Below, piece after piece: positions 1,770-32,720 of a stretch of DNA of 64,000 bases. A model generated the notes under the pieces. The model was not told the origin of the DNA. It saw only the letters and a program-made list of their open reading frames with translations, and ran no database searches. Position 1 is the first letter of the stretch. Every line of letters starts with the position of its first letter. The stretch lies in the IMG/VR virus record IMGVR_UViG_3300015207_000448, one strand, 5' to 3'. Source of the DNA: a virus. Its lineage: Duplodnaviria; Heunggongvirae; Uroviricota; Caudoviricetes. Position numbers and translations under genes: made by a program.

Positions 1770-2420
1770 ATGACACTTGGAAATTTATTTTCAGCACAAG
1801 ACATAGCCGCTCTTAAATCTGTAGCAACTGCACAGACAGATGCGGAAAAATATACAACCCACATAAGCGAAAAAGCGTGGGATATGCTCTATGAAACCGC
1901 CGCTAACCTTGGGCAAAAACTTACTCCGAAATGGTGGCGTGAGCTTGACCAAATCGTATCAACCGACTCTGAGGTAGTTGTGTGTATGCGAGGCAAACGG
2001 GAATGTGAAATTATATCCGTGACCTATCAAGCGTATTGGGCAAGACATTTGGGGCAGATGCTTAAAAGTGGTTACTCAATCGTATGGATTGGCAAATCTT
2101 TCAGCACTCAAGTAAATTGGGACAACTGGAAATGGGTTTATGCCGAATTAACCACTAAGCCGGAAACACAACAGTACGACCCTGAAATGACATTGACTGA
2201 AAAACGCGAAATGCGTGAGGCCCGCAGACTGAAAAAGCAGTTCAATGATGGAGCTGATGTGATACGTCGTCGAAAAAGTATGGTCCCCACAACAAACGAG
2301 GAAGCCGCAAATCAAGCATATTCCGTGGCTCGTGACCGTGAGTTCCGAGCAGCAGCCGAGCGAGATATGGCTATAAGCGGAACTGTGGCCCTCGCCAACA
2401 AGATATTTGCAATGGTGTAA
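1770..2420 (+). CDS. Hypothetical protein
   Basis: ORF 1557..2420, probable start at MTLGNLF; followed by a terminator. Confidence 0.4.
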   Translation: MTLGNLFSAQDIAALKSVATAQTDAEKYTTHISEKAWDMLYETAANLGQKLTPKWWRELDQIVSTDSEVVVCMRGKRECEIISVTYQAYWARHLGQMLKSGYSIVWIGKSFSTQVNWDNWKWVYAELTTKPETQQYDPEMTLTEKREMREARRLKKQFNDGADVIRRRKSMVPTTNEEAANQAYSVARDREFRAAAERDMAISGTVALANKIFAMV

Positions 2421-2441
2421 TATGTGTCATAATCGAGAGAT

Positions 2442-2478
2442 AGCCGCAACTGAGTGACATCGGTTGCGGCTATTTTTA
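2442..2478 (+). terminator. Rho-independent terminator
   Basis: agccgcaac ... gttgcggct hairpin followed by atttttata. Confidence 0.5.
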
Positions 2479-2831
2479 TATCCCTACTGAAGCAATGAAG
2501 CACGAATATATGGTGGAGGCGTTGGAAATCATAACCACCAACAATCAAATTACAGTGTCGTTCAATACGCCGGTGAATGACAATTATTCCCACACCCACA
2601 CACTTCTCATTCACAAAAGCAATGCTACGGTTCTGAAGAAGCTCCATGAAGCGGGCTTCTCCCTCAGTATGACTGAGAAGGGTCTGGCGGTCGATAAATT
2701 CTAATTCTCAAAATAAAACTGAAAATGGAAATTAAAACTTACACAATCTGCGGACGTCCTCGCCTCGCTGTCAAAGTTGCCTCCTGTGCTGGTGGCGTGT
2801 ACACTAACTATCAACACCCCAAAAGAAGGAA

Positions 2832-3239
2832 ATGAAATCGTCAACTGTATTTTGTGCTCTCATCGCGATAGTGGTGGGAGCACAGCTCATTCTCGCACAT
2901 ACCAATCAGCCCACTGTAAACGCGAAAGTCGAAGAAAATTATCTGGAAGACAATCGCGCATGGTCCGGAATGTTCTTTACCTCTGAATCAGTGGTGGAGG
3001 AGTACGAGTATGACGATGCTTATTGTTTGCTCTACGATGATGCTGATGCCAATATGTTTAACGTAGAAATCTGTGTGGATCTGGAAACGTATCAGGCAGT
3101 CATTGATGCCCACAAAACAGGTACTGAACTCATCGGGACGCTTGTTCTCAATGATGATTATTCCTACGAATGTGTAGATGTCTTCACCTATATGCCTGAC
3201 CCGGAGTTTGAAATGGCTGCGGCAAGCGCAAAACTCTAA
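2832..3239 (+). CDS. Small secreted acidic protein
   Basis: N-terminal signal peptide MKSSTVFCALIAIVVGAQLILA; D/E/Y-rich mature part. Confidence 0.45.
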   Translation: MKSSTVFCALIAIVVGAQLILAHTNQPTVNAKVEENYLEDNRAWSGMFFTSESVVEEYEYDDAYCLLYDDADANMFNVEICVDLETYQAVIDAHKTGTELIGTLVLNDDYSYECVDVFTYMPDPEFEMAAASAKL

Positions 3240-3259
3240 CCCAAATACTCAAACTGAAA

Positions 3260-3487
3260 ATGAAAACTCAAGTATTAAATCTTATAAAAGCACTGGCAAT
3301 GATAGTGCTTCTTTCAATCGGCGTGATGTACAAGTTTGGACGCCGTTGGTATCGTCGTTTCTGTATCAAAGTGCTCTGGAAGAAACTCCAGATACGCACA
3401 AGCGTGTACGAGCAATGGCACGCTAAACGTGCTGCCAAGCTCCAAACGGCCCTCAACATCGAACATTCTGAATACCCTTCATTCTAA
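3260..3487 (+). CDS. Small membrane protein
   Basis: Hydrophobic N-terminus LIKALAMIVLLSIGVMY followed by a basic tail. Confidence 0.35.
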   Translation: MKTQVLNLIKALAMIVLLSIGVMYKFGRRWYRRFCIKVLWKKLQIRTSVYEQWHAKRAAKLQTALNIEHSEYPSF

Positions 3488-3684
3488 TGTTTCACTACTA
3501 TCAGGCACCTGCAACTCTTGAGGTTGCCCGCTATCTGATGCAGGGCAACCGGGAGTTCTATACCCATAAATCATCAATGGATGCGCCGCTACAAATTCGT
3601 TTTCTTGCCTCTGAGGAGTATGTGAAGAAAATGCAAGCCCGGCCATTCCTGAAACACATCCCAATAACAATAAAAGCATAGGTT

Positions 3685-4005
3685 ATGTACGTATCAGAAA
3701 AAGATATTGAGTTCGCTAAAACCACCCTTAGCGATTTCGTAAATGGTGGAATGAGTTCACCAAAAACAGTTGCCGCTCAAATGAGCCTCGACCACTGCTA
3801 CCTCCAGAATGAAATGTTCAAAATTTGCCTGGAATACATCAAAGTTCTCGCAATGAACTATCAGCATGGCAGATTTGACCCTCGCAATGAATGGGCTTGT
3901 TCTCAGGCAAATAACATTGTGTGCTGCACATCGACCATCCCCGATCTCACAGAAATTGATTGGGAGGAATATCAAGAACGTCTCAACTCAATATACTACA
4001 AGTAA
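3685..4005 (+). CDS. Hypothetical protein
   Basis: ORF track only. Confidence 0.3.
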   Translation: MYVSEKDIEFAKTTLSDFVNGGMSSPKTVAAQMSLDHCYLQNEMFKICLEYIKVLAMNYQHGRFDPRNEWACSQANNIVCCTSTIPDLTEIDWEEYQERLNSIYYK

Positions 4006-4268
4006 TGTGGAAACGTAAATTTCGATTTGTGACCGAGAAAAGCGACGAGGTTGCACTGGCTAATCCAATGCACCTACCGCAAATCTGTATCACAATCCTT
4101 GCAGAGAAAGAAGCTCGCTTTATTGCTGTGTACGAAGTTGAAGACGGGTCTGCTCAAACAATTTTCGTGGCTCATTACAACTGCGAAGCCAAAGGCGACG
4201 TAAAAGACCGATACACATACTGTTTCTTCGATGGTTCAAAAAACACGCATCTAAAGCAGTACAGATAA
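3960..4268 (+). CDS. Hypothetical protein
   Basis: ORF track only. Confidence 0.3.
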   Translation: MGGISRTSQLNILQVMWKRKFRFVTEKSDEVALANPMHLPQICITILAEKEARFIAVYEVEDGSAQTIFVAHYNCEAKGDVKDRYTYCFFDGSKNTHLKQYR

Positions 4269-4363
4269 TATTACATTTTCAGTTTGGAGTTTGATAAGCC
4301 TCGTGACCTAAAAGGTTGCGAGGCTTCTTTTACTCATTCACTGAAGTTCAAAAACATAAGATA

Positions 4364-5227
4364 ATGAATGATTTGTTGATTGAAACCAGAGAAATTGGTA
4401 ATCATCGCATAAAGATATACTACGACACTAACAACACCTGTCCGGTCAAGGATTGGGATATGGGAGGTTGTTATGTTTTTGAGCATCTTGAAAACGGTCG
4501 TTACTGGCTATCATCAGACTGTGATTGGAAAGAATACAGTGGTGGTTACAGCCTCAGAGATAATTCTATGTCTGACATACTTCAGCGAATGGCTGCTGAT
4601 GTGGTAGAACAGAAAGACATCATAGCCCACTACAAAGCCGGGAAGATGAAAGACGTGAGATTCATCTATAATCGCCACACCCGTATGTGGGAACTCCAGC
4701 ACTACCTCCGATGGAAAGGCGCCAACGCTAACTGGGAAACGCAGTTGGAAATAGAACCCTATGAATTAAAAGCCGATGCCGACTATCGCATGGAATTGCT
4801 TGAAGGTCTTGAAGAGGAAGATATGTTGGCCATTATTCAAAAATACGCCAAAGATTTCGTCATCAAAGAATGGTCTTCGTCTGGCTATTCGCAAGGAGAC
4901 CACATGAGGGGTATCGCCTATATGTCCAAAGAACATTTCGACAAAACATGTGGCTTTAGTCATGGCCATTATAAAGACTGGAAGGAGCAGGCTCTACATG
5001 TAATCGACGGTGAAGTCAGATGCATCGAAATGTGGGCTTGGGGCGATGTCAAAGGCTATGTTCTGGAAAAGAAAGTACCGTTCACAAAAGTCTATGCCGA
5101 CGAAGATCGTGAAGACGAGGAAGACATTGAGTGGGAAGAGGTCGATTCTTGCTGGGGCTTCTATATGGAAACCGAGGAACTGATTGCCGAGGTAATTGCT
5201 GAACATGACCTGAAAGAAGTTGCATAG
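4364..5227 (+). CDS. Hypothetical acidic protein
   Basis: ORF 4316..5227, probable start MNDLLIETR; acidic C-terminus (EDEEDIEWEE). Confidence 0.45.
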   Translation: MNDLLIETREIGNHRIKIYYDTNNTCPVKDWDMGGCYVFEHLENGRYWLSSDCDWKEYSGGYSLRDNSMSDILQRMAADVVEQKDIIAHYKAGKMKDVRFIYNRHTRMWELQHYLRWKGANANWETQLEIEPYELKADADYRMELLEGLEEEDMLAIIQKYAKDFVIKEWSSSGYSQGDHMRGIAYMSKEHFDKTCGFSHGHYKDWKEQALHVIDGEVRCIEMWAWGDVKGYVLEKKVPFTKVYADEDREDEEDIEWEEVDSCWGFYMETEELIAEVIAEHDLKEVA

Positions 5228-5266
5228 CATAATTATCTATGAATGAACGCAGGCCGAATTAATCAA

Positions 5267-5330
5267 TGTTAAAGTGTACAAGTTTTCACCCCATACTCAC
5301 ACTACAATCTCTATTCGTAAACAAACAACA
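5267..5330 (+). promoter_or_regulatory. Conserved promoter/leader motif, copy 1 (tgttaaagtgtacaaNttttcacNcc ... ctattcgtaaacaaacaac)
   Basis: Near-identical 26-mer and a CTATTCG-TAA-CAAC element recur at 11843-11905; the CTATTC part recurs in reverse complement near 59650-59690, upstream of target 3. Confidence 0.4.
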
Positions 5331-5339
5331 AACTGAAAG

Positions 5340-5618
5340 ATGAATACAGAAATTCAAACAACGAAGTTGGATGGCACTATCTCATACATGATTGATAAGG
5401 CATCAGCCTTATCGTCCAACTTGGAAGTGCTGAAAATGGCTCTTCCAAAAGAAACACAAAACTTAATGGTTGGACGGGCAAATCCCATAACCATTAGAGG
5501 TATTCTTGACAACCAGACCGCTTGTCTTGATGAACTCAACTCTCTCATTACGGAACTAAGAACTGAACTTAAATGCCTTACCACGTCATCCTCTCAGATT
5601 CAGACGGCGAATCAGTAG
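5340..5618 (+). CDS. Small hypothetical protein, first gene of the target-1 operon
   Basis: ORF immediately downstream of the conserved motif. Confidence 0.3.
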   Translation: MNTEIQTTKLDGTISYMIDKASALSSNLEVLKMALPKETQNLMVGRANPITIRGILDNQTACLDELNSLITELRTELKCLTTSSSQIQTANQ

Positions 5619-6031
5619 TCGGAATCTGTGGCACCCTTGAAGCTGCTAAAGAGCATCTTCGTAGTGTTCGATATTACCCCTCTTATATGAGAAGCGTCGA
5701 GAGTTTGGATATTTCCGATGACGAAATGTCTGGTACCGGCTATGATGAGAGTGGGCATTTCACATACTCAATCAAAACAGCATAACATGAATGAGCGCCA
5801 ATACTTTGTGATTATGCCCAACGGACATCTCTTGTTCGTGGAAATCACCCCAGAACGTAAAAGCGTGATTGACGATGAATTTTCCGGAGACGAAGAAGAA
5901 TACCTCTATACGGTTCTATCTGAAGAATTTGACTTTTCAGTCAACGATGTTGACTGGTCAATTGTGCCGGATTCATGTATCACTTGCTTCGGCAGAAACC
6001 CTTCGATAACAAAACTATAAACATTATAACA

Positions 6032-6829
6032 ATGGAATTGAAAAACGAACTTAAAAAGTTTATCGTTGACCGTACCACCCGGTACAACGTAATGGCTAAG
6101 AGCCAGGAAGCCGCTGAACTTGCTGCGGCAGGAGGAGTGATTTTCGGCAATCTGTCTGCGGATGCCGACCAGTTCTCAGTTTACCCTGAGGGAACAGAGG
6201 GTCAAGACGGCCTCAATCTCACGTCCAAGGACAATTCAACGCTTGACAACATCAAAGCTGAGGTCAAGCGTACCGGTGAAACACAAATTCTCATTGCGAT
6301 AGTTGGTGGAGGCTTTCTCACGAGAGACGAATATGCACACGCCAATGGAACGGACTTTAAGGATGCCGTCATCGGTATCGCTGTCATCACTCCGCTTATT
6401 TCTTTCATCGTGGGGCTCACTGAATGGAAGGAGCGCTGGAGTGAAGATGACGAGCATGTCGTGACTGAATCTCACACCGAAGCTCAAGCCTTCCAGGTTG
6501 TTTCCGGTCTGGAGCATACCCGTCAACTTGTCGATTGGCAAGAAGATGAAGGCAATACTGCCGCAAAAATGTGCTGGAACTACAAGCATAAAGGGCTTCA
6601 GTGGTATCTCCCGTGCCTGCTGGAGCTCAATGCCATCTGTGCAAACAAAGAAGAAATCAATGTGCTTCTGAAACTCGTCGGCGGTACGCCGCTCAGTTTG
6701 GATGAATGTTATTGGTCGTCCACTGAGCACTCGGCTGGCTACTCGTGGTTCGTCTACTTTGGCAGTGGTCTTAGCTACTACGGCAGCAAGTGCGGCACTA
6801 ACGTGGTTCGCCCTGCTGTTGCCATATAA
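6032..6829 (+). CDS. DGR-type target protein 1 with a DUF1566/C-type-lectin-like C-terminal domain
   Basis: C-terminus ECYWSSTEHSAGYSWFVYFGSGLSYYGSKCGTNVVRPAVAI is a DUF1566 signature (W-LP ... YWSST ... VR-V); paralogue of 11922..12590 with identity concentrated at the 3' end. Confidence 0.7.
   Translation: MELKNELKKFIVDRTTRYNVMAKSQEAAELAAAGGVIFGNLSADADQFSVYPEGTEGQDGLNLTSKDNSTLDNIKAEVKRTGETQILIAIVGGGFLTRDEYAHANGTDFKDAVIGIAVITPLISFIVGLTEWKERWSEDDEHVVTESHTEAQAFQVVSGLEHTRQLVDWQEDEGNTAAKMCWNYKHKGLQWYLPCLLELNAICANKEEINVLLKLVGGTPLSLDECYWSSTEHSAGYSWFVYFGSGLSYYGSKCGTNVVRPAVAI
6710..6826 (+). repeat. Variable region VR1, 117 nt
   Basis: Nucleotide-identical to 12471..12587 except at 7 codons, where only positions 1 and 2 differ and position 3 is fixed (cac/ggc, ttc/cgc, ctt/ggt, tac/ggc x2, ggc/tac, aac/tac). 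This pattern indicates adenine-specific mutagenesis of AAC codons. Confidence 0.6.
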
Positions 6830-6850
6830 GCTCAATCTTTAATCTTCACT

Positions 6851-6875
6851 GCCGGGCCAGTTTCTCTGGCCCGGC
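6851..6875 (+). promoter_or_regulatory. GC-rich hairpin 21 nt downstream of the VR1 stop (gccgggccag-tttctc-tggcccggc)
   Basis: Perfect 9-10 bp stem with no U-tract; identical copy after VR2; resembles the hairpin needed for DGR target recognition. Confidence 0.5.
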
Positions 6876-6894
6876 TATAAATCAAATCTCGATT

Positions 6895-7101
6895 ATGAAT
6901 AAATACCTGATATATACTGGACAGGGTTGGACAGAAGACCCCAATGGGGAGCGTGTTGAAAATTGCCAAATTCTTGGCAGAGCCGAAGGTGAAAATGAGG
7001 ATGATGCTCTTGATAGTTTCCTCAAAAATAACCCTTGGGTGGAAGAAAGTGGGTTTGATGAGTTTGATTTGGCCCAGCTTCACGACACAGAATGGGTATG
7101 A
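6895..7101 (+). CDS. Small acidic protein
   Basis: ORF track. Confidence 0.3.
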   Translation: MNKYLIYTGQGWTEDPNGERVENCQILGRAEGENEDDALDSFLKNNPWVEESGFDEFDLAQLHDTEWV

Positions 7102-7276
7102 AACAGAGATATACCGTCAACGTCCATTATGATGCAGTTGTCACAGTGGACGTAATTGCTAACTCGGAAGAGGAAGCTGTCCAAAAAGCACTATACAAAG
7201 CTGAGGACATTTCGCTCGAAGATGCTGAGGTATTCGACATCAACTGCTGTGTGACAAATATAGAAGATTTATACCC

Positions 7277-7852
7277 ATGAGAATCTACGAAGAAAAAGCG
7301 CTCAAAGATTTCGATTTTTGGAGCGGTGGCGCAGATAGAGCAGCCAACTTAACTGATGAAGAGTTTGACTCAGTGGAGCGATTGTTTGAGGAACTATATC
7401 CGGACGGTATGAGTGATACCGAAATCAACGACTTTTTCTGGTTCGATTTCGACACAATCGCGCAGCATCTTGGCTACGAGGACGAGGAAGATTTCGACCG
7501 GAAGCACGACCCCAACTACATTGAAGATGATGACCTTGAAGAGTATATTGAGGAGTATTGGAGAGAATATCTCGATACAATCTTTGAAGAACAAGGTGAA
7601 GATGGTCTTAGATTCATCGTGACTGACTTGTTCGGGGACGATCCGGAAGAAGTTTTAGTGGACTACAAAGAAGAGGCATTTGACGAATCACCCAGAGGTA
7701 TCTTCTATCATTATCTCAATGTTCGCTACGATAGCAGCGAACTTATGGAAACGCTCTTTGACAACGATCAGGGTTGGGATGTGCTCGACAATTTTCCCAC
7801 AAAAGAAGAGTTCCGCGACGAGATGATGGATAAAAAGAAAACATCAAAATAA
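7277..7852 (+). CDS. Highly acidic hypothetical protein; paralogue of 62669..63274 (minus strand)
   Basis: Shared FWSGG-DRA-N-T-EE and WFDFDTIAQHLGYEDEEDFDR-HDPNY blocks; D/E-rich. Confidence 0.5.
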   Translation: MRIYEEKALKDFDFWSGGADRAANLTDEEFDSVERLFEELYPDGMSDTEINDFFWFDFDTIAQHLGYEDEEDFDRKHDPNYIEDDDLEEYIEEYWREYLDTIFEEQGEDGLRFIVTDLFGDDPEEVLVDYKEEAFDESPRGIFYHYLNVRYDSSELMETLFDNDQGWDVLDNFPTKEEFRDEMMDKKKTSK

Positions 7853-7859
7853 TACGACT

Positions 7860-8501
7860 ATGTTAATGACATTTAATGAATATGTCATCGACTGGTGGAA
7901 AGACTATCTTTCCTTTATCGATGAGAGTACTGCCAAACGAATCATGGAAAACGAGTTCATTGGCGAAGAAGAAACTGTAGAAGATTACATCCCTGAAGAT
8001 GCTGAAAGCGTGATTGACTGGCTTGACAAACAGGACGACGATGGTGAGAAAATTTACAAGATTTTCTTCGGCCCTGAAGCTACCGATTGCGTGTACGACA
8101 ATGTCCCCGATACTGATACGTTCCTCACAGATATGTTTATGCACTGTGCTGGTTGGTACAACAATCCAGACAGCGAATCAAAGCCCAGCTTTGCTGAAAG
8201 TTTTGTAGCAGATATGGCCTATCACGCTGAAGATTACGAAACTCCGCTCGGCTTTTTTCAAGACCTGACCCACGGATGTCAATCCGGTATGATTGGTATG
8301 CTCATCTACAACTCCGACTGCAAGGAAATCTACATCAAGCATATTGACGATATGGAAGAGTGGAAGTTAGAGGAAGAGGAAAGCCTCGGAGAATCAATTC
8401 GTAACAAAAATCATATTCCACACTATACTTGGATGTGCTGGCTGTGTTACGAAGAACTTGGTTTCCAGATAGCTCGAATATTATTCCCTGATACATTTTG
8501 A
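7860..8501 (+). CDS. Acidic hypothetical protein
   Basis: ORF track; D/E-rich. Confidence 0.4.
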   Translation: MLMTFNEYVIDWWKDYLSFIDESTAKRIMENEFIGEEETVEDYIPEDAESVIDWLDKQDDDGEKIYKIFFGPEATDCVYDNVPDTDTFLTDMFMHCAGWYNNPDSESKPSFAESFVADMAYHAEDYETPLGFFQDLTHGCQSGMIGMLIYNSDCKEIYIKHIDDMEEWKLEEEESLGESIRNKNHIPHYTWMCWLCYEELGFQIARILFPDTF

Positions 8502-8504
8502 TCG

Positions 8505-8879
8505 ATGGAACTACAAGAATGTATTGACCTAATCACTCAATGTGCTGAAAACAATGGGTGGGGAGTCTATGCCACTCCTGATGACAGAGATGGTAGTGTT
8601 TGCTTTGAATTTAACACATCCACGCCTTGCGGACAAGACTTTTGGATTACCTGCTATTTGGCAGACAACGACCCTCATACTCTTGTTCAAAATGTCTATG
8701 ATTACTGGCAAAGTTATGATCCTGACTATGAAGCAACTTTTTGGATTGGCGATGACGGCCATGGAAAGAATGGTGCTCCATATCATATCATAGATATAGT
8801 TCGTGACATGGAGGCCGCTGAAAAGCGAATAGCAGAACTTTATGATGCCCTCAGTGAATTAGATTTCGATGAGGATTAG
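8505..8879 (+). CDS. Acidic hypothetical protein; homologous to the middle part of 50416..51345 (minus strand)
   Basis: Shared Y-SYDP--EA--WIGDDGHG-NGAP motif. Confidence 0.45.
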   Translation: MELQECIDLITQCAENNGWGVYATPDDRDGSVCFEFNTSTPCGQDFWITCYLADNDPHTLVQNVYDYWQSYDPDYEATFWIGDDGHGKNGAPYHIIDIVRDMEAAEKRIAELYDALSELDFDED

Positions 8880-8900
8880 TCAACAAATAAACTCCAAACA

Positions 8901-9767
8901 ATGAAAACAGAACTTGAAGCGCTTGGCTTTACCGGATTTTACCAAGGAATATGGGACCAAGGTGAAAACGAATATGGCGCCATGCAGATGCTGAAGTATG
9001 GCGATTATGACGACATTGAAACCCTTGAGTTTATCGAATATTGGGGTTTCGGAGAGGATTACCGTGAGAAGGTGATGAAGGAGTATGCAGAACGTTACGT
9101 TGAATTTGTGAATGATGTGCTTGGAACTGATTTCGCATTGACATCTCAATCGTTGTGGTCTCCGAAAGAATATAATTTCCAGACGGACAAAGTATTTTGC
9201 GATGTCGAAATTGAGGATTTTGATGGACTCGTGGACAGGCTTGTCAAAATGGTTTCAACAGACCTCGATCTCTACAATGTTATGCGCAAGACCATCCACG
9301 ATAATCACACCAGTTGCAGCGGTTTCATTTCGTTTATGGATAACGATATTGATGAATGGTTTGGCCTCATTCAAGACCCTGAGAACACAACCTATTTCTC
9401 ATATTTCATCGCTTATTTGGTTAATGCCATCCAGCCTGGTTCTCTGCGTCAACTCAACGAAGACATCTATGGGTACGTATCAGAAAACACAGATTGGCAT
9501 TTACCAGTGCCTGAGACCGACGAGGCAAAAGAAGAGTACCAGTTATACTCTGAACATCGTGACACCTACACTGAGTTTCTTAAAGAGTACCGGAAGAACC
9601 ATGTGGATCCTACAAGACAAGATTGGCCGGAGGATGATCGCCGCCGCTACGATGTGGATTGGGACGAGTTCAAGGAAGCCTTCTCGGAACACCTTGAATT
9701 TCTTGAGGCAGAAAGAAAACGCCTCGAATATCTGAGAAATCAACCTGTAATACCCGGATTAGAATGA
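8901..9767 (+). CDS. Acidic hypothetical protein; paralogue of 61492..62199 (minus strand)
   Basis: Shared blocks FTGFY, PKEYNF--D-V, WF--I-DP-NT, TDEAKEE, LRNQP-IPGL. Confidence 0.5.
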   Translation: MKTELEALGFTGFYQGIWDQGENEYGAMQMLKYGDYDDIETLEFIEYWGFGEDYREKVMKEYAERYVEFVNDVLGTDFALTSQSLWSPKEYNFQTDKVFCDVEIEDFDGLVDRLVKMVSTDLDLYNVMRKTIHDNHTSCSGFISFMDNDIDEWFGLIQDPENTTYFSYFIAYLVNAIQPGSLRQLNEDIYGYVSENTDWHLPVPETDEAKEEYQLYSEHRDTYTEFLKEYRKNHVDPTRQDWPEDDRRRYDVDWDEFKEAFSEHLEFLEAERKRLEYLRNQPVIPGLE

Positions 9768-10069
9768 AACTGATATTTCCTCTCCCAAATGGAGAGCAGC
9801 TTGACCTTTTTGACGAGGGGCCAAACGGAATGGATTACATCTGTACTGTTAGCGGCGAATACAAAACCGGAGTGATTGGTCTTGTGGAAGAATACGAGCG
9901 AGAAAAGAATCCGCAGCGTCGCCTCAAAATCGATGATGAGATTCACGACCAAGCTTACTACTATGTCGATTCGATAGCCATGTGTGATGAAGAGCTTCAG
10001 TCAATGATAAGTTTAACTGATCTGGCTGAACAAATCTATCGTGCTATCATAACATTTGCCAGAATATGA
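9764..10069 (+). CDS. Hypothetical protein
   Basis: ORF track. Confidence 0.3.
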   Translation: MKLIFPLPNGEQLDLFDEGPNGMDYICTVSGEYKTGVIGLVEEYEREKNPQRRLKIDDEIHDQAYYYVDSIAMCDEELQSMISLTDLAEQIYRAIITFARI

Positions 10070-10632
10070 CGGAGAAAAGAAAACTCGCCGACTGTTTTGA
10101 AAACGGTTGGTTCAAAGCGGAATACCTTTGGGAACTTCGCCAAGAGATTGTTCTTGGTAGTCTGTATTACGCTGACTATCGCAACTCATTTGGAATTGAT
10201 GAACACAAAGTGCGTGACTTTTTCACAAGTTTTTGGGATAGCTTCTGTGAGGAGCTTGCCAAGGAAGACAATCTGTGGGAAGAAGCTTGTATTATCACCC
10301 GTGACCATTTTGAAGGCGACACGAATGTAAGTCCTGGCAAATACGATTTGTTTCGCGAAGAGACGTATCAAGAATTATTTCAGAAACGCTACGATAACGA
10401 AGATACACTCAAAAATTGGTATGGCTGTTTCTGTGATGATTGTCCACTTCCTCCCAAGATGGTTAATGTGGACATTTACTGGCAATTTCACCGTTCAATT
10501 CATGTTATTGCTGGGACCGAAGATGAAGCGGAAGAAATCGTGAATGAAATGATGAGAAACCGCGAGATTCCGACAGAATCGTTTGAACCGGATGACGATT
10601 GGGATCTCGACACAACCTATCAACCTGATTGA
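10066..10632 (+). CDS. Acidic hypothetical protein
   Basis: ORF track. Confidence 0.4.
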   Translation: MTEKRKLADCFENGWFKAEYLWELRQEIVLGSLYYADYRNSFGIDEHKVRDFFTSFWDSFCEELAKEDNLWEEACIITRDHFEGDTNVSPGKYDLFREETYQELFQKRYDNEDTLKNWYGCFCDDCPLPPKMVNVDIYWQFHRSIHVIAGTEDEAEEIVNEMMRNREIPTESFEPDDDWDLDTTYQPD

Positions 10633-10984
10633 CATGGACAAAAACTTACAAACAAGATACTGCACCGAATGTGGTTCATCTGACGTCAGTTCAATGGCTT
10701 GGGTAAACAATGCCACCGGAGAAATTGAAGAATACATCGGATATGACAGAGACCCCGAATATAATTTTTGCCATCACTGTAATTGCTCGGTAGCAATTAT
10801 GACTCTCGAAACTATGTGGAAACACTTCAGTGAAATACCCATAGATTCTGAGGATTGCATCGAAACTGATTTTCTCTTTTTTGAGAAAGATACCGACCGA
10901 AATCATATCTGGCACTGGTTCGATGAAAGATGCCCGAATGGTCTTGCAATAGATCTGATGGGCGAGCAACCTAAACAACAATAA
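10583..10984 (+). CDS. Cys-rich hypothetical protein; its C-terminus is paralogous to 60902..61495 (minus strand)
   Basis: Shared C-terminal IWHWFD--CPNGLA-DLMGE; CTEC ... CHHCNC cysteine pairs. Confidence 0.45.
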   Translation: MNRMTIGISTQPINLIDMDKNLQTRYCTECGSSDVSSMAWVNNATGEIEEYIGYDRDPEYNFCHHCNCSVAIMTLETMWKHFSEIPIDSEDCIETDFLFFEKDTDRNHIWHWFDERCPNGLAIDLMGEQPKQQ

Positions 10985-10985
10985 T

Positions 10986-11579
10986 ATGAAATGTACATAT
11001 TTTCACTCTAAATACAAGGAGCTGGAGGCACAAGAGTACCGAGAGCTTGCTGCTGCGGTCAAAGCGCATGGCGGCGAATATGTCTTCTTTGATTGTAATC
11101 AAGAAGATGCTGATGATAAATGGCGCGAAGCTGATGGCCATGATGACATTCCAGTCATCAATGGTTGTCATCAGTGTATGGACAAAGACGATAGCTTCTA
11201 TGTAACTCGTGTCTCACTCGATGAGTATGGAAATCCTCAAATATTTGGATTCCGAGATGAATACGGATGCCCTTCAGATGAGGATAGGCTGTATAACATT
11301 CAATTTGGCTATCTCGACAACATCATCACGGAAATTCCTGAGACCGAGGAAGTACATGATGTACGAGAACTGCCCAAGCTAAATTCGATGCCGGTGCTGG
11401 TTCTCAGTCGAGAAGACCTCGAAGTGAAGGGTTACGACCCTGAAATGACTGACGATGAGTTTTTCACACTTGGAAATTCCGTAGCCAAACATCTTGATAT
11501 GGATGACTTTTGGCTGGCACTGGAGTATGCTTGTGATTACTTAGGTGTAAAACGATTAAACGAAGCAGACGATGAATAA
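10986..11579 (+). CDS. Acidic hypothetical protein; paralogue of 59733..60116 (minus strand)
   Basis: Shared AAVKAHGGEYVF / AAIKAHGNEYVF and IPETEEVHDV / IPETDEVQDV. Confidence 0.5.
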   Translation: MKCTYFHSKYKELEAQEYRELAAAVKAHGGEYVFFDCNQEDADDKWREADGHDDIPVINGCHQCMDKDDSFYVTRVSLDEYGNPQIFGFRDEYGCPSDEDRLYNIQFGYLDNIITEIPETEEVHDVRELPKLNSMPVLVLSREDLEVKGYDPEMTDDEFFTLGNSVAKHLDMDDFWLALEYACDYLGVKRLNEADDE

Positions 11580-11847
11580 AGATTTTAATCGCTGGGAGTT
11601 CATTGAAAAGTGGCTTCCAAACTATTCATCCGATCAAGATGTGGCATGGTCAAACGACTTGTCAAAATATCTTGCCGGAGAATACGACTATCAAGACCCG
11701 TATGACAGAGACCGTATCAATGCAATAGCAGAAGTTTGTGCTACTGCTGAAGACGCCAAAATTGAGCTCGAAAGGGTTGACTGCGGATTGTTTTTGGAAG
11801 CACTGGAAGCATACCAAAGACAGAAAGAGAAAATTAACGAGTGTTAA
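11572..11847 (+). CDS. Small acidic protein
   Basis: ORF track. Confidence 0.3.
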   Translation: MNKDFNRWEFIEKWLPNYSSDQDVAWSNDLSKYLAGEYDYQDPYDRDRINAIAEVCATAEDAKIELERVDCGLFLEALEAYQRQKEKINEC

Positions 11848-11905
11848 AGTGTACAACTTTTCACACCTCTAATACAAAACAAATCTATTCGATAATAAAC
11901 AACCA
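11843..11905 (+). promoter_or_regulatory. Conserved promoter/leader motif, copy 2
   Basis: tgttaaagtgtacaacttttcacacc ... ctattcgataataaacaacc about 20 nt upstream of the target-2 start. Confidence 0.4.
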
Positions 11906-11921
11906 ATTAAATCAAAGACAA

Positions 11922-12590
11922 ATGTCACAGTTAAATGTACTTCAGGAGCTGAGGGCTTCACTTGCCTTCGCCAACCGCTTTGACATCGCCAAAGCAAAAG
12001 ATGCCTACGATTTTATCATAGGCGAAAACGAGGAACAGCCTACCCTAAATGTGAACGTAGCGCCGCTTTCAGATGGAATCTACTATGTTATCAACGACAA
12101 AACGCTCGTTCCGGTAGCTCACCTTGAAACCGTCAACAAAGCAAGAGTTATCGGCGTCGCAGTTAAGATGTCCGACAAGATTGCGACTGTTGCTCTTCAC
12201 GATGCAGCTGATGGAGAAGAAGTCGCGCTTACCACAACAGAGAATAACGGCTCGTCAGAGTTTTTCCGTCCCGACTTTTGGGATGCGATGTCTGACTGGA
12301 ATGGCGAGGCCAACACCAAGGATTACGGCGACGACCTCAATCCGGCAATCAACCTTCAGCCTGGACAGTACATCCCGTCGCTCGCTCAGCTTCATCTGAT
12401 TCTCCTTAACATCAAGGAGGTCAATGCTGCTCTTGAAGCAGTGGGCGGCACACCGCTTCGCAAAGAGTGGTATTGGTCGTCCACTGAGGGCTCGGCTGGC
12501 TACTCGTGGCGCGTCTACTTTGGCAGTGGTGGTAGCGGCGGCGGCAGCAAGTGCTACACTTACGTGGTTCGCCCTGCTGTTGCGATATAA
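11922..12590 (+). CDS. DGR-type target protein 2 with a DUF1566/C-type-lectin-like C-terminus
   Basis: ORF 11841..12590 (GTG start) with probable Met start MSQLNVLQEL; C-terminus EWYWSSTEGSAGYSWRVYFGSGGSGGGSKCYTYVVRPAVAI. Confidence 0.7.
   Translation: MSQLNVLQELRASLAFANRFDIAKAKDAYDFIIGENEEQPTLNVNVAPLSDGIYYVINDKTLVPVAHLETVNKARVIGVAVKMSDKIATVALHDAADGEEVALTTTENNGSSEFFRPDFWDAMSDWNGEANTKDYGDDLNPAINLQPGQYIPSLAQLHLILLNIKEVNAALEAVGGTPLRKEWYWSSTEGSAGYSWRVYFGSGGSGGGSKCYTYVVRPAVAI
12471..12587 (+). repeat. Variable region VR2, 117 nt
   Basis: See VR1; the region from the VR through the downstream hairpin (about 12458-12651) is about 90% identical to 6697-6890, whereas the upstream coding sequence has diverged synonymously. 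Confidence 0.6.
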
Positions 12591-12611
12591 GCCTTACTCT
12601 TCATTCTTTCT

Positions 12612-12636
12612 GCCGGGCCAGTTTCTCTGGCCCGGC
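12612..12636 (+). promoter_or_regulatory. GC-rich hairpin 21 nt downstream of the VR2 stop
   Basis: gccgggccag-tttctc-tggcccggc, identical to the copy after VR1. Confidence 0.5.
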
Positions 12637-12659
12637 TATAAATCAAAATCTGAGATTAG

Positions 12660-12977
12660 ATGCCCTATAAGAGCGAGAAAATCAATATCGCCGGAACAAA
12701 ATACGATAGGCGTCGTAAACTCAGTCCCGATCAGGTCAAAGCAATCAAACTTCTCAAAGAAGAAGGATATAGTTATCGTCAACTCGCTGCCATGTTTAAT
12801 TGCAGTAAATGGACGATTCAAAACATAATCAATCCACAAATTAACAAACAACCAATCAAACGACCTACATCATATTGGACTGAGAAAAAGCGACAATATC
12901 GACAAAGAAAGGAAGCACTTTTCAAATCCGGAAAAATCAATGCGAAAAACAAAAGAAGTCGAGCCTATAAGAATTGA
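12660..12977 (+). CDS. Small, very basic helix-turn-helix protein lying between target 2 and RT1; possible DGR accessory or regulator
   Basis: SPDQVKAIKLLKEEGYSYRQLAAMFNCSKWTIQNII is an HTH motif; K/R-rich tails; it occupies the position where Avd usually sits, but no Avd-like features were recognised. Confidence 0.45.
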   Translation: MPYKSEKINIAGTKYDRRRKLSPDQVKAIKLLKEEGYSYRQLAAMFNCSKWTIQNIINPQINKQPIKRPTSYWTEKKRQYRQRKEALFKSGKINAKNKRSRAYKN

Positions 12978-13182
12978 AGATTTCATACAATCAGTATTAG
13001 CACTCAATGGTCTGAAACGCGGAAGAGATTTCAAAGTTTCCGGTAGGCAGTTATGGATTAAGAAAAATCCACTCCGAGGTAAACTGATTGTAATGTTGAA
13101 AAATACGTTCTCTGAGTATAGCTATTACTGGGAATCACCTCAAATTCTTAGATGGTTTTAACCCACAAAAACAGGAAATTAC

Positions 13183-14442
13183 GTGGACAAGATATTAGAA
13201 AAATTCTTCGAGCTTGAACGATGGGAATATGCCATTGACAAAGGCTTGGGAAAAGGAATTTCAAAAGCACAACTCTACCAGCTAACGAAGCCGGAAACAA
13301 GGGTTGCGATGTATGAGGCCATTCGAGATGGTAAGTACGAAATAGCACCACCTCACACTGCCAAAATACCCAAAGATAATGGCGAGTTCAGAACAGTTTA
13401 TATCAATGAACCGGCTGATCGAGTTTTATTGAGTATTGCCAATGATCTTCTGTTTGAATTGATGCCTGAGATGGTTCATCCGCAGTGTCAGTCATACCAG
13501 AAGGGAATTGGTTGTGGTAAGATTGTACAAGAAGTATCTCGAAAAATATGCGACACGAAGGGCGAAGTCATCGGTTGGAAGGCCGACTTTAGCAAGTATT
13601 TTGATAGTGTGCCGGTAAGGTTCATTGATGAAGCCTTTGACAAAGTTGAAGCGAAACATGGACATTCGGCACTGATTGATGTATTGCGAAAGTATTATCA
13701 TTCCGACTATTTCTTCACTCCTGAAGGTGAGCTGATGCAATCGTACCAATCATTGAAGCAAGGGTGCTCCGTCGCATCTTGGCTGGCTGATGTGGCCCTA
13801 TGCCACCTCGATGAACGGCTGTCTCAACTGGATGGCTACTATATTCGCTACTCTGATGATACGCTATTTGTCGGAGCTGATTACGAGAAAGCTATGGTGA
13901 TTATGGAAGATGAATTACATCAGATGGAAATGAAACTCAACCCCAAGAAAGTTGAGTATCTGACTCCTACGAAGTGGTTCAAATTTCTGGGGTTCTCAAT
14001 CAAGGGGGCTGCAATCTCACTCAGTTCAACCCGCATAAAGAAATTCCAAAAAGAGATTGAGAGGTTGACGATCAAAGCAAAGGATATTACGCTCCAAAAG
14101 GCTATCAATTCTGTAAATCGTTTTCTTTATAAAGGCTACGGTGAACATAGTTGGGCCACTCAAATATTACCTATTTGCAATGTCCACTCTGACATCCACG
14201 AATTGAATTGTTTTGTGATGGATTGTCTGAGAGCAGTAAAGACTGGTAAGAAGAAAATAGGCGGTCTTGGTTATGTGGTCACACAGGAGCAAGGCTGTAT
14301 TTCACGAGGCATTGGAAAGAACGTCAAGGCTAACCGTGAGAAAACAGCTAATATGATAAACCGATATTTGACGCTCTCTTGTATGCAAAATGCAATGCGT
14401 ACAAGCCGAGACGCTTATCGGACTTTGGTCGCTTCTCTCTAA
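13183..14442 (+). CDS. Reverse transcriptase RT1, of group II intron-like / DGR-type
   Basis: RT motifs present: PKDNGEFRTVYINEP, WKADFSKYFDSVP, LKQGCSVASWLADVAL, YIRYSDDTLFVG (YxDD), LNPKKVEY, FKFLGFSI; about 100 aa of C-terminal extension beyond the thumb. Confidence 0.85.
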   Translation: MDKILEKFFELERWEYAIDKGLGKGISKAQLYQLTKPETRVAMYEAIRDGKYEIAPPHTAKIPKDNGEFRTVYINEPADRVLLSIANDLLFELMPEMVHPQCQSYQKGIGCGKIVQEVSRKICDTKGEVIGWKADFSKYFDSVPVRFIDEAFDKVEAKHGHSALIDVLRKYYHSDYFFTPEGELMQSYQSLKQGCSVASWLADVALCHLDERLSQLDGYYIRYSDDTLFVGADYEKAMVIMEDELHQMEMKLNPKKVEYLTPTKWFKFLGFSIKGAAISLSSTRIKKFQKEIERLTIKAKDITLQKAINSVNRFLYKGYGEHSWATQILPICNVHSDIHELNCFVMDCLRAVKTGKKKIGGLGYVVTQEQGCISRGIGKNVKANREKTANMINRYLTLSCMQNAMRTSRDAYRTLVASL

Positions 14443-14444
14443 CT

Positions 14445-15800
14445 AAGTATGTGGAGGCAAAGAATGATTGAGCAATCATTTAGTCATTGCGGCAGAATCC
14501 ACCGAGGAGAACGCGCTGATACCGCGTGCTCCTCCCGTTACGCCCGCCGCCAGACATCAAACAGATATAGCAACATACAATTCAATCTGACTTTGCCAAA
14601 AACCAAGTGTATGGATATATTCAACGGCTGCACACATTTAAGTGTCAGCAGGCAAATCGGGAACCGTTCTGTAAACTTGAGATTCCGAAACGGAATCCAA
14701 GTTCCTACAGAGCGGGACACCGATAGCCTGCTGCCTATATCGAAACTATATAGCAATACACCAAGTGCAGTGATGAATACTAAACTGAGTATGCAGACGA
14801 AGTTGAATGGCGTACCGTTTCAGGACATGATCATATATCACCTGAGTCTTGACCAGGTTAGCACCGTGGTCAGACTCAAGTTCCACGATCATGTCTACAT
14901 CAAACTGATAAAGATACATACAAAGCGCATGACAACTTCAAATTTCGCCGGGCGTGCGGCTCACGATTGTAAATCTGCAATCTTCAATGTTAGACGAGTT
15001 GTATTCGAGCTGTTCACGGACACACTGGGTCCAGTTTCCAGCTCGAAACACTCGTCAACATATCGAGAAAATAAAGATACACGTAACAGGAACGCAATCG
15101 TACAATTGATAACAGCGTCGAGTATGAGGCAGGTGCTTAATCTTGAAAATTTCAATGGATCAGACATAACCAGAAGTTCGTCGATTCCATCCAATCGACG
15201 AACTTCTGGCTGTACTGATTTCATATCAAGCAGATTACAGAAACATACAAACTCAAGTGAAAGTGCCTCCGGTATGCGCCGGGCTAAAATCCAAGCAGAC
15301 GAGTTTAGAGATACAGTTATCAATAAGCCAGGTACGGGACATTCCGACCGGCCAACTAAGCCGGTTCTCCGTGTCCCGTGCCTGGCTTCTGAATACTGTA
15401 TTCATCAAGCCTATAAAGCACCGCATTGTGTCTGACAGGATTGAAAATAGCGCAAATGGGCCATCGGGATCAGAACATTTATCGTAGCTGGTTTCAACGT
15501 AAGGTCGTCATCTCCCAGTAGATAACTGGATATGACGTCCTTCGCTCACCAGCTTCTGAATCGAAGAGATATAGCAAGCGCCGCTCTGATGAGATTGTCC
15601 GTAAAAGTGTAACGTAACATTTATATGCAAGAGGCCAAACTTCAATAACCCGCCGAGTCGAAGCCCTCCTGGATACAGGTAGGACCGACTACACAACGTT
15701 TCGTGGTCCATACCTGTATCCAGGAGGCCGCTGAACGGCGGGTTACATCTAAATCAATAGAGCAATACGTCATTGGCTTTGAGCATCTAATTTTTTAATC
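14445..15800 (+). other. 1.35-kb hairpin-dense noncoding region 3' of RT1; candidate RT-associated structured RNA or regulatory region
   Basis: Perfect or near-perfect long stems, e.g. ccagaagttcgtcgatt/aatcgacgaacttctgg (17 bp) and cctcctggatacaggta/tacctgtatccaggagg (17 bp) nested inside cccgccg/cggcggg, ggagaacgcgc/gcgtgctcctcc, gagtcttgacc/ggtcagactc. The only ORF here (14449..15435) is low-complexity and has no paralogue. Confidence 0.4.
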
Positions 15801-15805
15801 AACAA

Positions 15806-16264
15806 ATGAAAAATATCTATAAAGAAACACTGGCTAAAGTTGCTGAAGGAGCACGATTCTCAGTCAATTTTGAGAAACGAAACCTAAAAGTTAATGGCAA
15901 GTATGTCATTAAGGAGGGTAAATATGAAGGTGAACTGGGTGTCAGTCCACTTCCCGTAGTTGAAACACTGAAAGACATCGAAAGACTCTATCACCGCTAC
16001 CGTCACAGCATACCGTCCGAAAGGTCAGATGCAAGACGGAAAACATACTTTCAGGCAATTGCAGAGCATGAGCTGTCAGACGATGACATGCTTTATGGTG
16101 AGCGGAGAGATAACGCTCAGATTGCTTTGGAACTGTACGTCCTCTGCTCAATTCTCAATGGCTCTCTTGTATGGGAAGACTTCGCTCAGGGCAAATGGTT
16201 CTGGCAGTCTTCCAACGAAAAGGGCTTAATCATCTTGAAACAATGGATAAATAACAACAAATAA
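15806..16264 (+). CDS. Conserved hypothetical protein; paralogue of 53245..53706 (minus strand)
   Basis: Shared KYVIK-G-YEGELG, SLPSERSD-RRK-YF-A--EH-LSD-DMLYGE, KWFWQS blocks. Confidence 0.5.
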   Translation: MKNIYKETLAKVAEGARFSVNFEKRNLKVNGKYVIKEGKYEGELGVSPLPVVETLKDIERLYHRYRHSIPSERSDARRKTYFQAIAEHELSDDDMLYGERRDNAQIALELYVLCSILNGSLVWEDFAQGKWFWQSSNEKGLIILKQWINNNK

Positions 16265-16277
16265 GAAACGAATAACA

Positions 16278-17384
16278 ATGGCAAAGAAAAACCCCAACCC
16301 CAGTACAAAAATCGTATGCCCCGTGTGCGGTACAGAGTTTGCAATCCCCGAAAAAACTCACGTTGCTGTCGGTATCGTCGTAGGTGCAGACAGCGGTCTT
16401 GGCACCATCTACCCGGCAACGACAGGAGCCACCCAAACTCCGGCACCCAGTGCTCAATCTCAGAAGAAAGCGACTGAGAAGATTGAGGCTTTGCACATGG
16501 CCGGGGTTAATGTTGACAACCTCTTCAGTATGAAGAGCGCGTCCGGTCAGGAAATCATCGCCCGTATGGAAAACGGAAACCTCTCCGTTGTTCCCGACAA
16601 TGACCCGATTTTCGCAGTTATCATGGGACGTGGTACCGTGCCTAACCGCCGACTCTTCCGTCGCTGGGTGATGGCTCAGGTCTTCCACATGCTCAACTAC
16701 AAGTCCTATCGCGGAAACAAAACAGGTTTCGTTGCTGCACTCGAAGCCAAAGGTTACAAGTATCAGTGGAAGATGGTTCTTGAGGAAATGCGAGTACAGG
16801 CTAAGCTCGCCGCTGAAGACCCTGAGAACTTCGCACTCCGTAACCGCTGGTTCAACGATGGCCGCATCATGCAAATGGGCGTGGACTATCTGGAGCAGCT
16901 TGTGGCTCATATCAACAAGCTGAAGGTTCGTCACTGCAAAGGCGTGCCCTATGTTAAACTGGGCGGCAGAAACGTGTTTACTGCTGACATCCAGACTAAG
17001 GTCATTGACCCTATCGTGAAAGCGATGGCGAAAATAGGTGAGGCTGACACCCCTCAGAAACTTTACTACGCAGTCAATGCTGCTGTAAGATTCATTCAGC
17101 AATGGTGGTTCACCAACGACGCTTGTATGTCTCAGGCTTTCAAAGACGCATACAAGGGAGCTGGTGCATACTTCACTATGCAGAACCTTATTCTCTTCCA
17201 CGGGGCCAGTTTCAAAAATGGCTGCATCAAGCTTGGCCAGAAGAAATCTCTGGCTATGCTTGAGAACAAGGCTCACGAATATGCAACTTCACAGGAAGGC
17301 TGGCGTCTGTTCGGTGTGATGAAGAAACTCATCGCTGATTCTGGTATCAATATCGGAAAGAAGATGGAAGAATGGCGAAAATAA
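16278..17384 (+). CDS. Zn-ribbon-containing hypothetical protein; paralogue of 52182..53270 (minus strand)
   Basis: N-terminal CPVCGTEF; shared blocks AGVNV-NLFS, VVPD-DPIFA, RRLFRRWVMAQVFHM, FKDAYKGAGAYFT--NLILFH. Confidence 0.5.
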   Translation: MAKKNPNPSTKIVCPVCGTEFAIPEKTHVAVGIVVGADSGLGTIYPATTGATQTPAPSAQSQKKATEKIEALHMAGVNVDNLFSMKSASGQEIIARMENGNLSVVPDNDPIFAVIMGRGTVPNRRLFRRWVMAQVFHMLNYKSYRGNKTGFVAALEAKGYKYQWKMVLEEMRVQAKLAAEDPENFALRNRWFNDGRIMQMGVDYLEQLVAHINKLKVRHCKGVPYVKLGGRNVFTADIQTKVIDPIVKAMAKIGEADTPQKLYYAVNAAVRFIQQWWFTNDACMSQAFKDAYKGAGAYFTMQNLILFHGASFKNGCIKLGQKKSLAMLENKAHEYATSQEGWRLFGVMKKLIADSGINIGKKMEEWRK

Positions 17385-18157
17385 CATCCAATGAAATCCT
17401 CCGAGAGCAATCGCTCGAAAAGCTCACGGAGGCTTACTACGAACAGTATAAGTACGATAATCGGTTGCCGGATCTCTTTGAACTAATTGAACCTGAGAAG
17501 TTGTATGAGTGGCTTGTCGAACAGTTTGACAACGATTTCTCGTACAAAGAAATTAAAGAGTTGTTTGACTATCAGCCTGACTATTTGCAAATTGGTGAAG
17601 TTGAATACATCAATGGGATTCCTCATTTCTTGTTCGACCAGTCATCAGAAGGACTCATTTTCAAAGATGAGGAGGCGTATCAAGAAAACTGGGATGCTCC
17701 GTGCTATGTTCCAAAATACGCTGCTGAAGATGCTGCCATTACAGTTAACGACATAGAATATGAGTGTGCTGGAGACAAAGAGCATTGCGATTGGTTCTCT
17801 CATAACGACTTGCTTGAAATTTGCCACGGCAATAAAGTGCTATGTGATGAGGTGTTCCGGGAACTTGATTGGACATATCCGTCAACGTGGCTGGAAGACC
17901 GAGATATGCACGACAGCATTGATTGGGAATACTTCTGGAACTATGTCGAAGTAGGCAATAAAGTCTGGTGGAATGATCCAGAGCAGAAAACCTGCGGATG
18001 GTGTACAGTGGTAGAAATCAAAGATCCGAAAGGAGAATGGGGAATAGACACTGTTGTATGGATTCTTCCTGAAGGTTATTCCATCGGTTCCGAAGCCGAA
18101 GTTCCGTTACGTGAATTGACAGACTATCCATATCTAACCAATATCGAAGAAAATTAA
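17372..18157 (+). CDS. Acidic hypothetical protein; its C-terminal domain is related to the N-terminus of 50416..51345 (minus strand)
   Basis: KVWWNDPEQKTCGWCTVVEIK ... SEAEV against DVWWKDPEGKTSGSFLVLEIK ... SEAEV. Confidence 0.45.
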   Translation: MAKITSNEILREQSLEKLTEAYYEQYKYDNRLPDLFELIEPEKLYEWLVEQFDNDFSYKEIKELFDYQPDYLQIGEVEYINGIPHFLFDQSSEGLIFKDEEAYQENWDAPCYVPKYAAEDAAITVNDIEYECAGDKEHCDWFSHNDLLEICHGNKVLCDEVFRELDWTYPSTWLEDRDMHDSIDWEYFWNYVEVGNKVWWNDPEQKTCGWCTVVEIKDPKGEWGIDTVVWILPEGYSIGSEAEVPLRELTDYPYLTNIEEN

Positions 18158-31478: not shown

Positions 31479-31563
31479 GGGTTAATGACGGAATTGGTAG
31501 ACGTGTCGGTCTCAAACACCGATGTTGAAAGACGTCCGGGTTCGACTCCCGGTTAGCCCACCA
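31479..31563 (+). tRNA. tRNA-Leu (CAA), type II with a long variable arm and an encoded CCA
   Basis: Acceptor gggttaa/ttagccc, anticodon loop ctCAAac, T-arm ccggg-ttcgact-cccgg. Confidence 0.7.
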
Positions 31564-31595
31564 AGAGAACATTTACATTTTAATCACCAAACATT

Positions 31596-32718: not shown

Positions 32719-32720
32719 CA

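Follow-up and report, generated by a model that had tools for sequence, protein, structure and literature searches.

The DNA analyzed here (hereafter "the window") is a stretch of 64,000 nucleotides from the Caudoviricetes record IMGVR_UViG_3300015207_000448 of IMG/VR. Its left part contains two genes, T1 and T2, whose 3' ends carry near-identical variable repeats (VR1 and VR2), each followed by a hairpin; downstream of T2 lie an open reading frame (ORF) for a small basic helix-turn-helix (HTH) protein and a gene for a reverse transcriptase (RT), RT1, with its associated genes (Table 1). An earlier note, made from the sequence alone, had interpreted this arrangement as the local cassette of a diversity-generating retroelement (DGR), with RT1 as its enzyme. 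In the ORF list the longest frames of T1 and T2 begin at 5975 and 11841, respectively, while the likely starts are those given in Table 1.

The two repeats at the 3' ends of T1 and T2 are real. Alignment, direct counting and a repeat finder run on the window (which pairs 6704-6886 with 12465-12647) agree that the ends are near-identical and that seven codons differ at positions 1 and 2, as the earlier note had stated. Over the 110 nt of VR1 and VR2 97 bases are the same and 13 differ, all of the latter in these seven codons and none at a third codon position. The note had described a block of 117 nt with seven differing codons; this holds for 110 nt and fails for the longer block, since an eighth difference (gcC/gcG at 6823/12584), synonymous and at the third position, lies just beyond the end of the homology to the template repeat (TR) described below. 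Its further claim that the upstream coding parts diverged by ordinary synonymous changes is wrong, as T1 and T2 are paralogs whose proteins are only ~35% identical. VR1 and VR2 are direct repeats, 5761 bp apart. In one related locus (L029, 8380-9476, compared with window positions 5800-6895 and 12465 onward) the 5.76-kb interval between T1 and T2 is gone and the body of T1 is fused at the VR to the sequence 3' of T2, as expected from recombination between two direct VR-hairpin repeats.

Searches of the window for a TR returned nothing but the two VRs themselves. They comprised blastn (word size 7), a scan with real TRs, and an adenine-tolerant ungapped scan, in which the whole VR and 39-nt pieces of it were slid along the sequence and mismatches were forgiven wherever the candidate template had an A. 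An exact search of IMG/VR with the constant parts of the window VRs returned 0 matches. With the variable codons set to AAC (AAYAACTCGTGGAACGTNAAYTT), the same database yielded 13 matching contigs, and the TR pattern reads TGGTC[G/A]TCCACTGAGAACTCGGCTAACAACTCGTGGAACGTCAACTTTGGCAGTGGTAATAGCAACAACAACAACAAGTACAACACTAACGTGGTTCGCCCTGCTGT[A/T]GC. One of the 13, IMGVR_UViG_3300045988_132205 (119 kb; hereafter 132205), carries also T1, T2, the HTH gene and the block of genes around RT1, collinear with positions 1847-18135 of the window at 95.7% nucleotide identity. Its DGR core opens with a 2184-aa tail-fiber-like target, which has a VR and a hairpin of its own; then come a 171-aa ORF, the TR and, last, an RT. 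The TR lies 46.6 kb and 52.4 kb from the T1 and T2 homologs, on the opposite strand. Thus, the TR that the earlier note expected somewhere in the replicon is absent from the window and present in a 95.7%-identical relative, and the sequence predicted for it comes close to the real one, differing only where both VRs happen to be mutated.

Comparison with this TR, which has 33 A in 110 nt, reveals the signature of adenine-specific mutagenic homing, as the note had proposed in preference to paralog drift: all 39 mismatches of VR1 and VR2 taken together fall on TR adenines, and none on the other 77 positions (for VR1 by itself, 18/18 at adenines, p ~5e-12). When the two VRs are compared with each other and the positions are sorted by the TR base, the 77 non-A positions are all the same, and the A-templated ones agree in 20 of 33 cases; the chance that 13-14 random differences among 110 positions would all hit the 33 A-templated ones is ~1e-8. 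Gene conversion between the paralogs, combined with diversifying selection on a few codons and involving no retroelement, could in principle homogenize the two 3' ends, as they are direct repeats and the deletion in L029 demonstrates that recombination between the copies does occur. This explanation is, however, already refuted by the adenine-only pattern with respect to an external TR, and neither the invariance of third codon positions, nor the variation of the same positions in dozens of relatives, nor the invariance of the TR itself agrees with it; we consider its probability negligible.

The VRs end in a GC-rich segment, GTGGTTCGCCCTGCTGT[A/T]GC, and TR and VR part ways directly after GCTGT(A/T)GC (...GCTGTAGC), a point that probably marks the 3' boundary of homing. 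Beyond it T1 and T2 share only 14 bases of a diverged 26-nt spacer, followed by a block in which 38 of 38 nt are the same (6849-6886 and 12610-12647) and which is not part of the TR. This block contains the identical hairpins listed in Table 1, for which DNA folding gives a dG of -14.9 kcal/mol and z of about -8 (-8.4 at 6851-6875). In two related loci (L002 and L010) a C-G to G-C swap leaves the stem paired, and hairpins of other sequence stand in the same place 3' of VR3, a third VR in the right part of the window, and of the main VR of the relative. The conservation of the hairpin in spite of the drifted spacer, the pairing-preserving swap, and the hairpins at the same place elsewhere fit a target-recognition element, and we predict that the hairpin acts as a cis element of this kind, by analogy with known DGRs.

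Variation of the VRs is also evident at the population level. The exact RT1 protein is present in hundreds of assemblies. Contigs that encode it and are 99.3-99.5% identical in DNA to the window over 8.6-18.6 kb differ from it at 0.13-0.20 positions per base in VR1/VR2 and at 0.003-0.006 outside, i.e. the VR rate is 23-69 times the flanking rate, and the VR changes fall at A-templated positions. Among T2 homologs at least 89% identical (n=34) all positions with at least four residue types lie in aa 190-214. The TR is invariant in ten further genomes, save for one polymorphic base and one variant longer by 3 nt (L168), and the adjacent main VR varies at A positions in the same ten genomes. Hypervariation of the VRs among near-identical genomes, together with the invariant TR, indicates that the DGR is active in this lineage, or was so until very recently.

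These data bear on the possibility that the genome from which the window derives has lost its DGR core, VR1 and VR2 being frozen relics of past diversification. There is neither a TR nor a DGR RT in the 64 kb, at 34625 the left phage gives way to another element, so that rearrangement is possible, and the exact T2 protein was found on three short contigs only. On the other hand, genomes with the identical RT1 protein carry different VRs, which argues for recent diversification, and the core lies ~46-52 kb off in the relative, a distance at which the window would not be expected to include it. Moreover, a member of the 90% cluster of the 171-aa ORF (P0166, from a Xylanibacter muris annotation) has a longest contig of 425,990 bp, the same size as that of a contig with the exact RT1, which suggests that the latter has the 171-aa ORF of the core as well. 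We regard the loss of the core as improbable.

We conclude that T1 and T2 are very probably remote (trans) targets of a canonical DGR, the core of which lies outside the 64-kb window. Because the window is collinear with 132205, the core would be expected on the opposite strand, ~40 kb beyond the left end of the window, and its presence in the window's own genome is supported by its presence in the 95.7%-identical relative and by the agreement in contig size noted above. Several points speak against this conclusion. Neither the TR nor the DGR RT has been observed in the genome that the window comes from, and the case for their presence there rests on relatives and on the match in contig size at 425,990 bp; the 171-aa ORF, which stands at the position of Avd, has no match in Pfam, NCBIfam or PHROG; the C-type-lectin fold of T1 and T2 is not confirmed, with sub-threshold Pfam matches and a structural model of mean predicted local distance difference test score (pLDDT) 51.6; and the role of the hairpin is argued by analogy only. 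Finally, at TR position 108 VR1 and VR2 both read T (GCTGTTGC vs GCTGTAGC), as does the TR variant of L168, and this T may reflect the TR allele of the window's genome and not mutagenesis.

Table 1. Coordinates of the features discussed in the text (window positions unless another sequence is named).
Feature	Position	Strand	Description
T1, remote DGR target gene	6032-6829	+	265 aa from the start used by gene callers in near-identical contigs
VR1, variable repeat of T1	6713-6822	+	18 mismatches vs TR of L017, all at TR adenines, 0 non-A
Hairpin after VR1	6851-6875	+	GC-rich, 10-bp stem, 5-nt loop, 29 nt beyond VR1 end
T2, second remote DGR target gene	11922-12590	+	222 aa, likely start 11922
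VR2, variable repeat of T2	12474-12583	+	21 mismatches vs TR of L017, all at TR adenines, 0 non-A
Hairpin after VR2	12612-12636	+	identical to hairpin after VR1
TR in 132205	L017 12967-13076	opposite to T1/T2 homologs	matches predicted AAC-codon template
HTH protein, small basic, 105 aa	12660-12977	+	Pfam HTH_38 E = 2.6e-8, other HTH families
RT1, UG27-group RT (UG/Abi class 2)	13183-14442	+	PADLOC RT_UG27 E = 8.3e-229
UG27 spacer, 1363 nt	14443-15805	+	position of the non-coding RNA predicted for UG27 systems
UG27-associated protein, cluster 346	15806-16264	+	PADLOC RTas346 E = 7.4e-68
UG27-associated protein, cluster 337	16278-17384	+	PADLOC RTas337 E = 3.8e-136
Six tRNA genes (Leu-CAA, Ala-TGC, Met-CAT, Cys-GCA, Asn-GTT, Gln-TTG)	31479-33504	+	near right end of left phage segment
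Integrase of right-arm element	34849-36111		
RT2 cluster 337 homolog	52182-53270		synteny with RT1 module by tblastx
RT2 cluster 346 homolog	53245-53706		synteny with RT1 module by tblastx
RT2 spacer	53707-54553		right-arm element
RT2, second UG27 RT	54554-55828	-	PADLOC RT_UG27 E = 1.1e-230, full length
T3, DGR target	58747-59460	-	carries VR3
VR3	58751-58865	-	18 mismatches vs TR in L050, all at TR adenines, 0 non-A

Complete copies of the RT of the core were found in two related loci (L021 and L148). They comprise ~493 aa and have the motif IGNLTTQ; DGR RTs carry the motif IGxxxSQ. Their best PDB match is the 328-aa RT of entry 8ub7 (E = 1.9e-14), which we take to be the Bordetella DGR RT; a literature search with the PDB molecule name "HbP1" returned only a human transcription factor. 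In L021 (693-2174), L148 (10503-11984) and L016 (1073-2542) the ORF annotated as the RT includes the TR, in frame, in its 5' part and overlaps the end of the 171-aa accessory ORF; the true start of the DGR RT in these relatives may be downstream of the TR. A scan of metagenomes for the window-type TR recovered only the L017 sequence again, and window-type and related TRs were found in genomes of Muribaculaceae, Palleniella muris and Prevotella sp. The hosts are Bacteroidales, with Muribaculaceae or Prevotellaceae indicated.

The positions that the earlier note gave for the RT with the YSDD motif and for the HTH ORF are correct, while its local cassette with RT1 as the enzyme has to be abandoned, as the window has no TR and RT1 is a full-length member of the UG27 group accompanied by RTas346 and RTas337. 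Residues 1-419 of RT1 cover positions 2-420 of the 420 positions of the RT_UG27 profile. At the place of the IGxxxSQ motif of DGR RTs the protein has QGCSVAS. Its best PDB relatives are group II intron RTs and, unlike for the DGR RT of the relative, a PDB search did not match it to the 328-aa RT of 8ub7; BLASTP detected no similarity between RT1 and the relative's DGR RT (E = 3.8). The order of cluster 346 followed by cluster 337 is kept downstream of the RT in ten related loci (L001-L010). RT1 is therefore a separate retroelement that shares the neighborhood of the targets, and not the DGR enzyme. The HTH protein is likewise probably a neighbor and not a DGR accessory: Pfam searches of the window ORF returned HTH families only and nothing resembling Avd, the gene is found upstream of UG27 in L001, L002 and L010 only, a 105-aa ORF in the same place in the right arm is not similar to it, and in the relatives the Avd position, next to the TR, is occupied by a different ORF, the one of 171 aa.

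The spacer between RT1 and the cluster 346 gene contains long internal inverted repeats (e.g. ~15646-15745), exhibits low sequence conservation among relatives and has no conserved ORF; in 56 UG27 loci the spacers range from 709 to 1934 nt, without a consistent ORF. A 328-aa ORF (14449-15435, plus strand) fills most of the spacer in the window, and public assemblies annotate it as a gene. It has no Pfam match, is broken by a stop in the relative with a 97%-identical RT and has no counterpart in other UG27 spacers; substitutions are distributed 19/23/35 over the codon positions, a spread without a clear bias, and there are no indels. This ORF is probably not a gene. In one contig (L034 11261-21260; ENA ERZ27272608 k141_64095, 425,990 bp) the identity to the window ends right after the stop codon of RT1 and is followed by a DUF772 transposase and then by SusC/SusD-type host genes, which suggests a break mediated by an insertion sequence, or a prophage junction, inside the UG27 spacer.

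Could RT1 nevertheless diversify T1 and T2, using an unrecognized template in its 1.36-kb spacer or a distant TR RNA? The function of UG27 is unknown, in 10/10 T2 relatives a UG27 RT follows the T2-type target at a distance of 0.6-1 kb, and T3, the target gene of the right arm, lies ~3 kb upstream of the second UG27 RT, RT2. Yet the spacer is dissimilar to the VRs even if any base is allowed opposite A, the matching TR adjoins a DGR-type RT in the same genomes, and RT1, which lacks IGxxxSQ, is unrelated to the DGR RT beyond the RT fold. Furthermore, the main tail-fiber VR, which is far from any UG27, was diversified from the same TR, and a survey of 80 UG27 loci identified T-like genes within 6 kb in only the 16 closest (RT at least 73% identical), and none in 63. 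We consider a role of RT1 as the diversifying enzyme very improbable. The spacers of both arms were also considered as hidden templates and rejected, as they resemble neither the VRs nor each other. An obligate linkage between T-like genes and UG27 was discarded on the basis of the same survey, according to which the linkage reflects synteny of a lineage and not a requirement of UG27.

The occurrence of lectin-like DGR targets upstream of UG27 in two elements with two DGRs (T2 with RT1, T3 with RT2) might reflect a functional link, for example one in which the hypervariable protein would be an adaptable binder that works with UG27 in phage-host or phage-phage conflict. We view such a link as unlikely. 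A lineage-specific partnership of T and UG27 might exist, the 80-locus survey counting against an obligate one; if true, the adaptable binder would give UG27 a programmable specificity.

Returning to T1 and T2 as remote targets, we note that Lcl_C (DUF1566) is the only Pfam family that matches the C-terminal domain of T1-T3, always under the gathering score (E = 1.7e-6 for T1, 2e-3 for T2 and 1e-4 for T3). T1 also matches PHROG 4245 (E = 3.7e-15), 65 of 77 scanned T2 homologs (283 were found) match Lcl_C below the threshold, and a profile search gave weak PDB matches to 8q4e and 4eps. An AlphaFold2 model of T2 built with 77 homologs, with pLDDT below 50 at the C-terminus, is too poor to test the fold. 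The assignment of this domain to the DUF1566/C-type-lectin fold, made in the earlier note, is therefore weakly supported. Neither T1 nor T2 has a signal peptide by inspection, and they lie among small acidic ORFs of the early region, with RtcB, radical-SAM and Tad2-like genes near; apparently, they are cytoplasmic early-region proteins. The 5 kb between them (6895-11847, plus strand) contain about eleven small, mostly very acidic ORFs, relatives of which carry only DUF-type Pfam labels (AF_1447, DUF7222, DUF6926). Several of these ORFs have homologs in the right arm, i.e. the two elements share a mosaic early/accessory region.

The window is a composite, as a different integrative element extends from 34625 rightwards. 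This element carries an integrase, PcfK/PcfJ and a second UG27 system, whose RT2 is 74% identical to RT1 at the amino acid level. In other assemblies it sits in Bacteroidales chromosomes and abuts host genes exactly at the point corresponding to 34625, and in the window it abuts the left phage just after the tRNA cluster of the latter. VR3 is hypervariable among near-identical copies. Its TR differs from that of T1/T2 and, in a scan with real TRs, was also absent from the window; it was found in 18 viral contigs (L050 and 17 others) beside an RT with the motif IGNLPSQ. The window therefore holds three orphan VRs from two DGRs, plus two UG27 systems.

Following the model established for Bordetella phage BPP-1, the DGR RT would copy the TR RNA, inserting random bases where the template has an adenine, and in each target gene the resulting cDNA would take the place of the 110-nt VR. 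The GC-rich 3' end of this repeat would guide homing, probably together with the conserved hairpin ~29 nt downstream. A single TR would in this way rewrite ~14 codons (those that read AAC, AAT or TAC in the template) in three genes or more, and the two small early-region proteins, with their DUF1566/C-type-lectin-like end, would come in a version particular to each genome.

DGRs with multiple and with remote targets are known, and UG27 has already been described; what is new is another DGR signature, which the earlier note recognized correctly and attached to the wrong enzyme. The case is a clean example of one phage DGR that rewrites several genes at long range, and as two of its targets are non-structural early-region proteins, it supports the view that the diversification brought about by phage DGRs extends beyond receptor-binding proteins. 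In this very common lineage of gut Bacteroidales phages, the hypervariable T proteins are candidates for adaptable binders of factors of the host or of rival phages. The case also carries a warning for annotation, namely that an RT beside a variable repeat need not be the DGR enzyme: programs whose search is confined to 10 kb around an RT would miss T1 and T2 or pair them with the wrong RT.

A megablast search of 5900-16300 against GenBank phages returned no match. The DGR that diversifies T1 and T2 resembles that of BPP-1 (mtd-avd-TR-brt) in the adenine-specific flow of information from TR to VR, in the VR forming the last ~110 nt of the target ORF, in the GC-rich 3' end of the VR with a GC hairpin downstream, in the order of the core in the relatives (target, small accessory ORF, TR, RT), and in the match of their RT to the 328-aa RT of 8ub7. 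Unlike in BPP-1, T1 and T2 lie 46-52 kb from the core and on the other strand, a single TR supplies three VRs or more, the distant targets are not tail fibers but small proteins of the early region without a signal peptide, the hairpin is ~29 nt from the end of the VR, and no family match could be detected for the accessory ORF.

The closest described case is the DGR of Quimbyvirus ("Quimbyviridae"), a Bacteroidales gut phage in which a structural target by the core is complemented by one distal, non-structural target on the opposite strand, located among counter-defense-type genes (Benler et al. 2021, PMC8008677). The layout described there, i.e. a structural target in the core and a distal target on the opposite strand in a Bacteroidales phage, is the one found here, where RtcB, radical SAM and Tad2-like genes lie near T1 and T2. 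The differences are that there are two paralogous distal targets here and one there, and that the RT of the relatives is a single ORF and not frameshifted.

With regard to RT1 and RT2, the UG27 system has been reported from gut phages as a system of unknown function, not enriched in defense islands and with a non-coding RNA predicted in its spacer (Mestre et al. 2022, PMC9226505). Both RTs match the UG27 profile end to end, both are followed by the spacer, cluster 346 and cluster 337, and both reside in DNA of gut phages or mobile elements, so that nothing differs from the published description. Our analysis adds to it a sub-lineage (RT at least 73% identical) that has a DGR target gene within ~1-3.7 kb upstream of the RT.

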